Shown here: positions 55,587-59,953 of the stretch, one piece after another | How the letters are laid out: every line of letters starts with the position of its first letter | How positions within the stretch are numbered: position 1 is the first letter of the stretch | Assembly (NCBI GenBank): GCA_951406725.2 | Contig: OX597815.1 | Coordinates: 81,344,001-81,408,000, forward strand | Source: Octopus vulgaris | Lineage: Eukaryota | Direction: 5' to 3' | DNA length: 64,000 bases | The notes under the pieces: model-generated | What the model was told of the DNA's origin: nothing | The model's input: the letters and a program-made list of their open reading frames with translations, nothing else | The model's database searches: none | Position numbers and translations under genes: made by a program

Positions 55587-55662
55587 TGTAGCTCATTCAG
55601 CGGTGGTGCCCCAGCATGGCCGCGGCCTTCGGGCTAAAACATTTTTAAGGATTTAAGGATTT

Positions 55663-58600
55663 ATATATATATATATATATATATATATATATATATATAT
55701 ATATATATATATATATATATATATATATATATATATATATATATATATATATATATATATATATATATATATATATATATATAGATAGAGATATATATAA
55801 ATAGATATATATATATATATATATATATAGATAGAGATATATATAAATAGATATATATATATATATATATATATATATATATATATATATATATATATAG
55901 ATAAATAGATATATAGATAGATATATATAGATATATAGATAGATAGATAGATATATAGATAGATATATATATAGATATATAGATAAATAGATATATAGAT
56001 ATATAGATAGATAAATAGATATATATATATATATATATATATATATATATATATATATATATATATATATATAGATAAATAGATATATGTATATATATAG
56101 ATAAATAGATATATATATATAGATAGATACATATATACATATACGTATATACATATACATATATACATATACATATATACATATATATATACACATATAT
56201 ATATATATATACATATATACATATACGTATATACATATACATATATACATATACATATATACACATATATATATACACATATATATATATATATATATAC
56301 ATATATACATATATATATATACATATATACATATATACATATACATATATACATATATACATATACATATATACATATACATATACATATATACATATAT
56401 ACATATACATATATACATATACATATATACATATACATATATACATATACATATATATATACATATACATACATATATACATATATATACATATATATAC
56501 ATATATATACATATACACATATACATATACATATATATATATATACATATATACATATATATAGACATATATATATATATATACATACATATTATTGAAT
56601 TGAAACAAGGTGTTTTTTTTTTCAAATTTATATTTATATGTGTGCATATACACATTGTATATGTGTATGTATATATATGTATACATGTATATACATATAT
56701 ACGTGTATATGCATATATGTGCATATACATATGTATACATATATATATATGTACATACGTGTACATACATGCACACGTGTACGCGTACAAACGCGTATAT
56801 GTATATATATATGTATATGTGTATGTATATACATATATACATATACACGGATATATTTATATATATGTATAAAGATGTATACACGTACGCATGCACATGC
56901 GTGTGTGTGTATGCGTATATATGTATGTATACGTATACACATGTATATACGCACATGTATATATATGTATGTATATACGTATGTACATATACATGTACAT
57001 ACGTGTATATATATGTATATATGTACATGTGTGAACGTGTATACATGTGTATATATATATATATATACATATACGTATACATGCATATATACACACATAC
57101 GTGCGTATGCGTATGTGTGTGTGTGTATGTGTATATATATATATGTATATATATATATATATATGTATACGCACGTGTGCATGTGTACACGTGTGTACAT
57201 ATACATACATACACGTACACACACATACGTACATATATACACATATGTATGTGCATATATATATATACGTATATGTATATATGTGTATATGTATGTATAC
57301 ATGTGCGTATATATATATATATATATATATATATATATACATATACATGTGAAGGGCATCCAGCCGTAGAAACACTGCCAGATCAGACTGGGCCTGATGC
57401 AGCCTTCTGGCTTCACAGACCCCAGTTGAACCGTCCAACCCATGCTAGCATGGAAAACGGATGCTAAATGATGATGATATATATATACATACAAATGTAT
57501 ATATGTACACATACATGTATACGCACATATACACATATATACATATACATACGTATATACATATGCACACATGTACACATACACATATGTATACACACAT
57601 ACACATATATATACATATATGTATATATATGTATACACGTACATACACATACATGCATACATATATACACATGTATACATATATATGCACATATATACGT
57701 ATATACATACACATATATGTGTATATATATACATACATACACATACGTATATATATATACATATATATGAACACATATATATATACATATGCACACATAT
57801 ATACATATACACATACATATATACGTACACACACATATATATATATATGTATATGTGTGTATATGTGTGTATATGTATATATGTATATACACATACACAT
57901 ATACGTATACACATATATACGTATACATACATGTACACATATATGTGCATGCGCATGTGTATATACATATATACACATCATATATACATACATACATATG
58001 TATACGTACATATGTACGTATATATATACGTACATACATATATATACATACATATATACATATATATATGTACATACATATATGTACATACATATATATA
58101 TATACATACATATATATATATACATACATATATACATATATATACATACATACGTATATACGTATACATACGTGTACGTATATACGTATGTGTATACATA
58201 CATATATATACACACATACATATATATACATGTATGTATATACATGTGTATATACATGTATATATATACATATGTATATACATATATGTATATACATATG
58301 TATATACATATGTATATACATATATGTATATATACATATATATATACGTATGTATATATATACATATATATACATATGTATATATATGCGTGTATATGTA
58401 TGTACGTATATATATATGTATATATATGTGTGCGTATATGTATATATACATGTGTGTGTATACATATGTATGTATGTACATGTGTATATGCGTATGTATG
58501 TGTCCACATGTATGTATACATGTGTATGTGCGTATATGTGTATACATACATATATATATATACACATATACATACCAATATGTGTACACATATACATACA

Positions 58601-58845
58601 TGTACATACATATATATAATATACACATTTACATACATATATATACATACATATACATACATACATACACATACATATATATACATATATACATACATAT
58701 ATATACATACATACATAGATATGTATATACATACATATATATATGCATATATACATACATAAATATATATTACATACAGTATGTACATATATATATACAT
58801 GCATACATATAAATATATACATATATGGCATACAAATATATACAT
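55663..58845. repeat. Compound AT/ATAG/ATAC/ATGT microsatellite field, about 3.2 kb
   Basis: Direct inspection. Interrupted by a short unique segment near 56595-56635 and a SINE tail at 57352. Confidence 0.95.
57352..57478 (+). mobile_element. 3' portion of the (TGA)n-tailed SINE-like repeat
   Basis: GAAGGGCATCCAGCCGTAGAAAC..CCGTCCAACCCATGCTAGCATGGAAAACGGATGCTAAATGATGATGAT. Confidence 0.75.
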
Positions 58846-59953
58846 ATAGTGAGCGGTGTCCCGCAGGGCACTGTTTTGGGACCACTACTGTTCATAATGG
58901 CCCTCTCAGACATGCCCTCAGCCACGCAGAGAGCCACGATCACAAGTTATGCAGATGATACAAAAGTTTCACAGGCAATACAGAACCCTGAAGACACTAA
59001 GCACCTGCAATGTGAGCTGGACGAAATATACAAGTGGGCTGAAAAGAATAGCATGCAGTTCAATGCTGAAAAGTTTCAAGCTTTATACTATCAGCATGCA
59101 AAACTGAATGCAATACCCAATGAATACACTGGACCCAGAGGGATTGCAATCCCAGAGGCACAATCAGTGCGTGACCTGGGTATTCACATGAGTGATGACG
59201 CGACCTTTCATGTACATGTTGCTAAACTGACAATGAAATGTAGACGGCTGGCTGGATGGATTCTTAGAACCTTTAGAACAAGAGAACAAGAAACCATGAT
59301 GGTCCTCTGGAAGACACTTGTCCTAAGCCACTTTGACTATTGCTCTCAGCTATGGTCACCATCCAGTGTCAAGTTGATCACAGAACTTGAGGCGATCCAA
59401 TGAAGCTACACGAAGAAGATAGCCTCTGTGCAGCATATGAGCTACTGGGAGAGACTCAGAGATTAAAGCTCTATTCCCTGGAGCGTAGGCGAGAAAAGAT
59501 ATGCCATAATATATATCTGGAAGATCCTGGAAGGTCTTGTCCCAGACTTTGGCATCGAGAGTCACACAAACGCCAGAACCGGGACGCCACTGCGTAGGTA
59601 CCAACGACTCCAAATTTGACATCAAGATGTAGGACAAGATATTGTGATAGCCTGGGCTTCAGAGGCCCACGGCTCTTCAATATCCTCCCGAAGAACCTGA
59701 GGGACCTGCATGGTGTGGATGCGGATGTCTTTAAAGTAGGACTGGATCTCTTCCTGTCAGGTGTCCCGGATGAACCAACTTCACGGCAGGAGGTGCAGAT
59801 GAGGGCAGCTGCATCGAAGCCTCTCTCATGCATCAGATGGCATTTGCTAAAAAGCATCCGTGAGGTAAAACCTGTAGCAAACCAAATGGCGGTGCCCCAG
59901 CATGGCCAAAGCCCATTAGCTGAAACTGGAAAATCAAATCAAATCAAAAAAAA
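58846..59953 (+). mobile_element. 5'-truncated LINE of the same clade as 51620-55662 but a different subfamily
   Basis: Begins IVSGVPQGTVLGP, then [48 protein letters not shown]. Contains stops and frameshifts; tail is (AAATC)n. Confidence 0.93.

Follow-up and report, generated by a model that had tools for sequence, protein, structure and literature searches.

The window, i.e., the whole 64,000-nucleotide stretch of Octopus vulgaris DNA analysed here, carries LINE copies and copies of the main SINE of this genome. LINE1 (51612..55662, + strand) belongs to family A of the CR1 clade; it is nearly full length, and its 5' half carries frameshifts. Over the 3' 1.6 kb, it is 99–100% identical to a copy whose ORF2 is open, and over the 5' part it is 83–95% identical. 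The first piece of ORF1 lies at 51598..52107 (+). ORF2 occupies three overlapping frames (52450..55586, +), encoding the AP endonuclease (52450–53187, +), a linker (53108–53737, +), and the reverse transcriptase (RT) with the C-terminus (53646–55586, +). The ORF1 of other copies has a weak Myb/SANT-like N-terminus, and family-D ORF1 additionally gave a weak CCCH finger match, both below the Pfam cut-offs. The family-A 3' module (55600..55640, +) ends with a purine and then AAAC; it contains predicted hairpin 1 with a G.G mismatch (55600–55623, +) and predicted hairpin 2 with a UUCG loop (55624–55635, +). The tandem tail (55641..55662, +) is followed by the (AT)n array hosting the element. LINE2 (58843..59953, +) is a 5'-truncated, decayed family-B copy, 94% identical to another B copy and 76% to family A. 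Its module spans 59887..59926 (+), and hairpin 2 is weakened by two substitutions.

The main SINE, which has well over 100,000 copies in the genome, is represented on the + strand by a copy at 27706..28069 (module 28016–28054) and by an older, diverged copy at 33221..33585 (module 33541–33580). On the − strand, there is a young, full-length copy (36387..36781, module 36402–36440), an older copy (44665..45023, module 44684–44722), and a young copy cut by the window end (63630..64000, module 63643–63681). A 3' fragment (37882..37990, −) has hairpin 1 deleted and hairpin 2 retained. The SINE head is tRNA-like by eye, and ARAGORN calls no tRNA in the window. The centre may resemble the CORE domain.

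An earlier note on this DNA had described a 20-nt block shared by both LINE ends and the SINE ends. The block was indeed found at 55602 and 59888 with 0 mismatches each, and at the SINE ends at 28016 (1 mismatch), 33541 (1), 36440 (−; 0), 44722 (−; 3), and 63681 (−; 1). These 7 matches compare with 0.01 expected, and none of 100 shuffles reached 7. Genome-wide, the block has 133,113 exact copies, and the reversed control has 0. Scanning with a covariance model added an eighth, partly deleted SINE end at 37897–37935. The LINE1 end and its UUCG-loop stem were correct as the note wrote them. The LINE2 stem of 3 bp with a 6-nt loop is true of the window copy, but this copy is decayed and not typical of family B: it folds no better than its shuffles (z = −0.72), and family-B copies outside the window have a SINE-like 5-bp stem with a 4-nt loop. 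Similarly, the SINE consensus end is exact at 36440, while the other four of the five ends deviate from it. The tandem tails proved family-specific, as claimed; the LINE 3' ends are short tandem repeats, with family E having an A-run in their place.

Structure prediction indicated that the 3' ends of six CR1 LINE families (A–F) and of the main SINE are variants of a single ~40-nt module of two stacked hairpins. The 20-nt block itself is the predicted hairpin with the G.G mismatch, which the earlier note had overlooked, stacked on the covarying hairpin. RNAalifold on 12 ends returned 13 pairs, 3 of which changed on both sides, and the second hairpin covaries between families as proposed. Paired cells amounted to 94.9% on the 12 ends, as compared with 21–42% in slid controls and 0/500 shuffles as high, counts that overstate independence because the LINE families are related. 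Similar pairing was obtained for 95 distinct ends from 60 loci in an alignment fitted to the model. In hairpin 1, the eight inner pairs are nearly invariant and covariation is confined to the outer pair, which is present in all LINE families and absent from the SINE. Across families, the sequence of loop 1 hardly varies, and that of loop 2 varies freely. Family F, with an RT only 44% identical, retains the hairpin 1 base, a second hairpin, and the AAAC exit.

The label 'Proto2-like' given earlier to these LINEs was not upheld. By eye, the RTs of A, B, and D match the clusters O.sinensis_14, _104, and _114 (PMC10294476 supplement), all three labelled Jockey/CR1 in the published tree. The family A RT differs at one residue over the stretch compared. 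These are RT-level clusters, and the passages concerned are silent on 3' ends and SINE partners (PMC10294476). Seven Proto2 reference rows differ at the RT motifs, while the CR1-labelled rows match. Judged by these motifs, the LINEs belong to the CR1 clade of the Jockey superfamily. Pfam detected only PF03372/PF14529 and PF00078 in two whole ORF2s and the window pieces, i.e., an AP endonuclease and an RT without RNase H. In our RT tree, made by a quick method without named references, families C and D clustered with two outside proteins (SH-aLRT 90). The row labelled B_L259 in this tree actually belongs to family F, and low coverage led to the omission of F1_L388, F2_L401, and F2_L404. Outside the source genome, the covariance model, which scores family F itself at only 12–13 bits, did not find the module in any of 80 metagenome CR1 loci, which makes this a weak negative; the matches of the metagenome scan were mostly ordinary CR1s, 25–50% identical.

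The homology between the SINE and the LINEs begins within a few bases of the block. The view that the 3' end of the main SINE was taken from this LINE lineage was supported. The statement that the window shows both partners did not hold as made: the families nearest to the SINE end are C and D, both absent from the window. Family C has the SINE's loop-1 variant and second stem, family D has its 8-nt tail unit, and the module of family A, to which LINE1 belongs, is the least SINE-like. A search for a LINE with the exact SINE hairpin, in one upstream context, yielded 10 matches, all SINE or solo copies. In age, the young SINE groups (3.5%) overlap C (4.0%), E (2.7%), and B (2.0%), and A (0.7%) is much younger than most SINE copies; these values come from small samples chosen by exact patterns or best matches, and the distances are inflated by lumping of SINE subfamilies. 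SINE copies diverge by 3.5–20%, and no LINE sample matches the oldest (20%) in bulk; family B, with a median of 2%, reaches 22%. The main SINE likely arose by tail capture from a C/D-lineage LINE, and it has likely been carried by several LINE families since its origin. This would assign a CR1 engine to an abundant SINE.

5' truncation is frequent among the LINE copies, and about a fifth of LINE 3' ends consist of the module only. For 120 LINE ends selected by the module alone (30 each from A, D, E, and F), 18 started at −5 to −3, 9 at −2 to +4, and 6 over the next 100 nt (p = 3e-23), corresponding to a ~100-fold enrichment of truncations per base at −5 to −3. This distribution contradicts random 5' truncation, by which the earlier note's version, a simple SINE–LINE pair driven by the window families, would account for the short copies. 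That version draws on the module carried by A and B, on the overlap of B with the SINE in age, and on the mobility of a young SINE-type module alongside A, D, and F. We regard it as very improbable, given also the closer resemblance of C and D to the SINE end and the youth of A.

The start position differed among the families. It was mostly −3 in E, −3/−4 in B, and mostly −5 in F; family A started at −3/−4 alone and at −4 in U6 fusions. The base of the predicted helix lies at −1 in B and E, at −2 in A, and at −2 or −3 in F. Across these families, the start moves along with the base of the predicted helix 1. A and E have an overhang of 2 nt, whereas that of B is mostly 3 nt, which leaves the ruler one base imprecise. 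The F module is longer and yet has the same structural stop; therefore, the stop is not set by a fixed distance from priming. In nine of the 120 ends, the module-only copy begins within or at the helix instead of ahead of it. The helix-adjacent base is a purine in all families, and the bases at the junction are not conserved. SINE copies are seldom module-only (about 3/121, by eye). Two other causes of the junction were discarded. Pyrimidine-A cleavage would put the start of A at −3 and that of E at −5, contrary to the observed starts, and target microhomology was ruled out by the 0/30 truncations of family A between −6 and −100.

The solo module copies have no common upstream flanks. This speaks against reading them as a tiny Pol III gene family with its own start or as products of DNA deletion after insertion. 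The starts are often purines and, by eye, the block bears a faint likeness to an A box, both in favor of a Pol III gene; no B box is evident at a usable distance. In four families the copies stop at one base, and untemplated bases lie beside U6; deletion would produce neither. Of all the explanations considered, we find this one the least credible.

Fusions to small RNAs revealed the same point. We examined 92 of 181 U6 ends. As in human-type chimeric retrocopies, they included junctions between a retroelement and the T-run-bearing 3' end of U6: 30 led to the module only, and 29 led to the very 5' end of a complete Pol III-type element; among the 33 'other' junctions, inspected by eye without alignment, none joined U6 to the LINE body. 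Independent U6 fusions to A, B, and E were module-only in 23/23 cases, as compared with 19/60 for the A and E ends (p = 4e-9). The 92 junctions included no fusion to C or D, and none to F, though exact ends are most numerous in that family (3,116). The flanks of the U6 chimeras are mostly microsatellite, and target-site duplications are mostly unreadable in (AT)n. U6 and the block share a 9-nt identity, probably by chance. Extra bases occurred at 25/30 module junctions and 26/29 head junctions (p = 0.71). Similar rates are expected if both are real template ends.

A second tRNA-SINE was fused to the module at 21 loci (14 E, 2 B, and 5 SINE-type), with the same junction point. For the SINE-type fusion, 40/40 scored matches spanned the junction at 98–100% (867 candidates), and the 30 copies viewed had differing flanks and a median pairwise distance of 1.0%. 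At the level of sequence, this showed that one second-SINE/module fusion with an internal-promoter head was amplified to a young SINE family. Its SINE-type module was mobile in the same period as A, D, and F.

With these results in hand, we propose that a protein-protected, 5'-trimmed module RNA explains both the solo insertions and the fixed-point fusions to small RNAs, a reading that we hold to be rather probable. By analogy with the eel and zebrafish L2 work, ORF2p would bind the module in cis to start copying, and the SINE would mimic the module. The LINE mRNA would be degraded, a 5'-to-3' exonuclease being the simplest agent, up to 2–3 nt short of the bound helix; an overhang requirement is a feature of Xrn1. 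The product would be a ~60-nt RNP still able to prime; like the rest of the mechanism, this putative species is deduced from DNA. The RT could then run off the trimmed 5' end, add a few untemplated bases, and jump to a Pol III RNA, either U6 or a tRNA-SINE, at its U-rich 3' end. End-to-end jumping is a property of R2-type elements. A fusion with an internal-promoter head would amplify as a new SINE; both the fusions and an amplified family are seen. Copies that fit every proposed stage are in the genome: solo modules, one-off fusions to U6 or to a further SINE, and a SINE family of recent amplification. The wider proposition has, in our estimate, even chances. It states that the CR1 lineage routinely makes a ~60-nt ORF2p-bound module RNA with a structure-measured 5' end, that this portable tail cassette can be fused by the RT to any U-ended Pol III RNA, and that SINE tails beginning right at the recognition structure were gained in this way.

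A stalling RT could leave similar copies from an intact template, if it stalled or released 2–3 nt past the module, where initiation gives way to elongation, and then integrated or jumped. This requires no extra RNA species and fits the nine ends that start inside the helix. The L2 ORF2p holds the stem-loop via a separate region (PMC4176376) and must release it. The stop, however, tracks the base of a folded helix that is already melted once the RT has passed, and it is independent of the priming distance, since the longer F module has its stop at the equivalent point of the structure. The other captures by U6 are mainly at genuine 5' starts, the 29 heads, and the SINE has the module but seldom yields module-only copies. 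We consider stalling possible but unlikely.

Compared with the protected RNA that we favor, a cut in the RNA just upstream of the module, made by the module itself as a self-cleaving ribozyme or endonucleolytically by the bound ORF2p, would also give a sharp, structure-defined end. The helix-adjacent purine in all families agrees with such a cut, as does the scarcity of module-only copies of the SINE, which is without the outer pair. The 5'-OH end could be ligated to U6 by RtcB, which in human cells joins U6 to 5'-OH L1 fragments (PMC6789731). Nevertheless, the window has 0 Rfam matches at the gathering score, ribozymes included, and sequence conservation is absent at the cut. A seamless junction is expected from RtcB-type ligation, in poor agreement with the extra bases at 25/30 junctions, and direct ligation also fits poorly with the 29 fusions at Pol III-type 5' starts. 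Cleavage therefore appears improbable to us.

SINE–CR1 pairs and U6 chimeras are already known. Stringent 3'-tail recognition has been described for L2 LINEs, with the LINE–SINE pair UnaL2/UnaSINE1 in eel and with ZfL2-1 and ZfL2-2 in zebrafish (PMC4176376), and the bivalve CR1-14_CGi has been paired with BivaV-SINE2 and BivaCORE-SINE1 (PMC4824008). As in octopus, the tRNA-type SINE in these pairs shares only a CR1/L2-group 3' stem-loop and a short tandem tail, with compensatory changes. The known pairs have one hairpin, whereas two stacked hairpins are predicted in octopus and are common to six coexisting families. ZfL2-1 and ZfL2-2 discriminate by the loop (PMC4176376); in contrast, the octopus families have almost the same loop 1 and differ freely in loop 2, which makes mobilization across the families likely, as far as the sequences can tell. 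The octopus CORE-SINEs OR1 and OR2 (Ohshima and Okada 1994, as cited in PMC4824008 and PMC4758252) are, like the main SINE, abundant tRNA-type SINEs. The passages of these two papers name no LINE partner for them, and the Ohshima 2013 review gave no hits for OR1, OR2, mollusc, or squid.

U6–LINE and U6–SINE chimeras are known from mammals, platypus, and Anolis (PMC4476161, PMC6789731, PMC11838501). There, as in octopus, a U6 3' end with 4–9 T is joined to the 3' part of a retroelement. The partners in human U6–L1 are variably truncated and RNA-ligated (PMC6789731), while in octopus the partner is always the module and starts within a few bases of one point. The L2 part of the platypus chimera is described as short, in a text that gives no junction position (PMC4476161), and platypus may show the same fixed-junction effect unreported. 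The crocodilian SINEU was born by a template switch onto a small RNA, after which one master copy was amplified (PMC4494074). Its LINE tail donor was not found, whereas octopus has many independent one-off fusions, the donors, and an amplified family all present. The literature searched contained no precedent for a fixed junction that produces SINEs and no direct explanation of why only the recognition structure is borrowed.

Template switching is the usual proposal for the acquisition of LINE tails by SINEs. In octopus, the switch point is fixed, frequent, and seen in dozens of independent insertions, which renders the question testable. The proposed mechanism would predict a specific small RNA, the chemistry of its 5' end, and a shift of the junction upon lengthening of the helix. 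As a natural 40-nt module with six sequence variants, the octopus 3' end can be used to map the recognition of RNA by ORF2p.

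The conserved 20-nt block at the 3′ ends was present in the window where the earlier note had placed it, with seven matches against 0.01 expected. Exact matching over the whole genome gave 133,113 copies, and 0 for the reversed control. Tracing the block through the genome recovered six LINE families, A to E and a more distant F, which carry it in a 3′ end of about 40 nt, the module. Exact counts were 1,537 for the family A 31-mer, 535 and 1,398 for the ends of D and E, and 3,116 for the 32-mer of F (RT identity 44%). LINE 1 of the window (51612-55662), a member of family A, has its endonuclease and RT domains spread over three frames. 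LINE 2 (58843-59953) is a decayed, 5′-truncated copy of family B, 76% identical to the LINE 1 family. Two details needed amendment. The block does terminate five SINE copies in the window, but the proposed consensus SINE end was matched exactly only at 36440 (-), and the stem written for LINE 2 is the product of two substitutions in that copy.

The LINEs had been described as Proto2-like, a label that was not sustained. By eye, the RTs of families A, B, and D corresponded to clusters O.sinensis_14, _104, and _114 in supplement 23 of PMC10294476, all labelled Jockey/CR1 in supplement 19, and the Proto2 reference rows of the same alignment differed at the RT motifs. On these grounds, the lineage is CR1 by RT sequence and at that level already known. 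Family A is very young, since 142 of the 150 scored matches to the C-terminal 168 aa of LINE 1 were identical (about 18 of these within a 1039-aa open frame). At the protein level the lineage extends beyond this genome: a protein of Argonauta hians was 62% identical (protein search P0004), and identity was about 50% for many metagenome proteins. The ORF1 showed a weak Myb/SANT-like N-terminus (loci L249:2651-3685 and L242:2855-3502), with a further weak CCCH finger match in family D. Such a make-up is unusual in CR1. Most viewed young copies of A, D, and F lay in (AT)n arrays (L031-L060, L091-L120, L381-L410), which suggests a microsatellite target preference.

Single-sequence folding and RNAalifold concurred in predicting a pair of neighboring hairpins, after which come AAAC and a tail that differs between families. 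Predicted hairpin 1 comprises the block and one outer pair, which is U-A in B and C, G·U in D, C-G in A and E, and unpaired in the SINE; family A has a second outer pair. Its inner pairs are invariant, and hence uninformative for covariation. Predicted hairpin 2 has 5 bp, compensatory at two positions, and a free loop. The proposed covarying hairpin was borne out on an alignment of 12 ends: 94.9% of the cells were paired, both sides had changed in 3 of 13 pairs, 0 of 500 shuffles matched this pairing and slid controls reached 21-42%, figures that count as support and not as a probability because the rows are related. In family F, the predicted fold has a longer loop in hairpin 1 but retains the base of that hairpin, a second hairpin, and the same AAAC exit. 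Rfam returned no match in the window at gathering score.

A wider survey of LINE ends was prompted by one U6 copy that ran straight into a module with no LINE body. The sample consisted of 120 ends chosen by the module alone, 30 each from A, D, E, and F, with one tandem module duplication in D omitted. Counted relative to the block, 18 insertions started at -5 to -3, nine at -2 to +4, and six over the next 100 nt (p = 3e-23). In family A, 12/30 were module-only, starting near the block without a LINE body, and 0/30 started between -6 and -100. Bystander ends, judged by eye, were module-only in about 5/14 cases for family B and about 3/121 for the SINE. The start tracked the predicted helix base, lying mostly at -3 in E, at -3 or -4 in A and B, and mostly at -5 in F, where the shift had been foreseen before the loci were viewed.

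The genome holds 181 exact U6 3′ ends, 92 of which were viewed. Thirty were joined to the module alone, which came from A in eight cases (one duplicated pair among them, and one identified by eye), from B in ten, from E in six, and from the SINE in six. Another 29 met an entire element at its 5′ start (main SINE, the commonest tRNA-type SINE, 21; second SINE, six; third SINE, one; 5S-headed element, one). The remaining 33 comprised five ends inside the main SINE, one inside the main-SINE module, four within another repeat, one within an unrelated CR1, seven tandem U6 genes, two U6-U6 junctions, and 13 without a recognised repeat. Among the 92 ends, none was fused by eye to the body of families A-F, and none to C, D, or F at all, which counts against generality. 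Every independent U6-LINE fusion was module-only (23/23), as compared with 19/60 among A and E ends (p = 4e-9). In contrast, human U6 chimeras are described in PMC6789731 as having variable junctions and forming by ligation. Extra bases occurred at 25/30 module junctions and 26/29 head junctions (p = 0.71).

The junction follows the fold rather than the distance from priming. Apart from the module junctions, U6 captures fell mainly at true 5′ starts, with extra bases of the same sort. From these DNA data, we infer that it marks the real 5′ end of an RNA. The main rival, stopping of the RT on an intact template, is unlikely in our judgment, and self-cleavage of the RNA would be a far slimmer prospect. 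We moderately favor, as the best overall explanation, the copying of a trimmed module RNA followed by an RT jump to a Pol III RNA. The trimming invokes the behavior of Xrn1 at short overhangs, and end-to-end jumping is a property of the R2 RT. For L2, binding of ORF2p to a 3′ stem-loop is established (PMC4176376), and by analogy ORF2p would bind the module in the octopus families. Decay of the LINE mRNA would halt 2-3 nt before the bound helix, the leftover module RNA would prime insertion, and the RT would leap from its end onto a U-rich Pol III RNA.

A further tRNA-type SINE was fused near its U-rich stretch to the module at 21 loci, with E (14), B (2), or the main-SINE module (5) as the partner. 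The E junctions fell at -3 in 12 cases, and at -2 and -4 in one each. Two E fusions shared their junction and private substitutions, as did one B fusion and another locus; some chimeras have therefore been mobilised again. The SINE-type fusion is an amplified family: among 867 candidates, 40/40 scored matches spanned the junction at 98-100%. Thirty viewed copies had differing flanks, an A-run tail, and a median pairwise distance of 1.0%, a value biased low through best-match selection. A SINE-type module has thus been moving as recently as families A, D, and F. None of these has its exact sequence, which suggests that the recognition of hairpin 2 is tolerant.

The main SINE has its loop-1 variant and second stem in common with family C, and its 8-nt tail unit with the preceding bases in common with D. 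C and D clustered with two outside proteins (SH-aLRT 90, in a quick tree with one row mislabelled and three dropped). A search with one LINE-type upstream context for a LINE bearing the exact SINE hairpin gave 10 matches, all SINE or solo copies. We infer that the tail derives from the C/D lineage and that successive families carried the SINE afterwards. Median distances to the sample majority, from small, selected samples, were 0.7% for A and D, 1.0-1.3% for F, 2.0% for B, 2.7% for E, and 4.0% for C, with 3.5%, 3.5%, 8.7%, and 19.6% for the SINE groups. The earlier note saw the clade of the two window LINEs as the engine of the main SINE; with the SINE end nearer C/D, and 0.7% for A against 3.5-19.6%, LINE 1 is the least likely main one.

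Bivalves have SINE-CR1 pairs whose stems show compensatory changes (PMC4824008, PMC4758252, PMC11481361), and the word "cephalopod" has 0 occurrences in the covered part of the last. Chimeras that join U6 to L2, to RTE, or to SINEs of either have been described, the L2 part being short in platypus (PMC4476161). According to the 2026 annotation of Octopus vulgaris, 13 CR1 families have been active recently (PMC13282606); "tail", "partner", and "snRNA" each have 0 occurrences in its main text. The consulted parts of PMC3747384, PMC3531059, and PMC4016481 held nothing further on pairing or junction. In the open-access literature searched, we found no report of the octopus pairing, the fixed junction, or module-only copies. 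The SINE-LINE pair as first noted belongs to a known kind; the fixed junction, solo modules, repeated fusions, and newly amplified SINE together bear on SINE birth.

Further observations concern the fusions and the window. A U6 copy at L137:4025-4290 is followed by a 5S rRNA-headed element running into the main SINE 3′ half, possibly a 5S-SINE with a main-SINE tail. Two independent U6 fusions (L178, L180) meet the main SINE at nearly the same internal base, some 97 nt upstream of its module, which may be a second favored stop. Seven U6 genes stand in tandem at about 1.1 kb spacing (L068-L074; G000:C1:139.42-139.43 Mb), U6 retrocopies comprise two sequence types, and head-to-tail U6-U6 retrocopies occur at L078 and L083, one preceded by a tRNA-like piece. 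The module or the SINE 3′ half was also tandemly duplicated via short shared tail sequence (L115/L116, L269/L270). Compared with a young family A copy, LINE 1 (51601-55600) is 99-100% identical over the last 1.6 kb and 83-95% in the 5′ part, and may be either a subfamily mosaic or a sign of ongoing 5′ replacement in the lineage. Between LINE 1 and LINE 2, a 3′ fragment of another abundant repeat with a trinucleotide tail (57349-57478, +) lies in an (AT)n array. A 703-aa open frame at 46669-48780 (+), which weakly matches RT and has a GIY-YIG nuclease-like C-terminus, represents a Penelope-like element that has apparently decayed little, and a Penelope-like fragment with a GIY-YIG domain (28137-29196, +) lies immediately behind the SINE at 28016.
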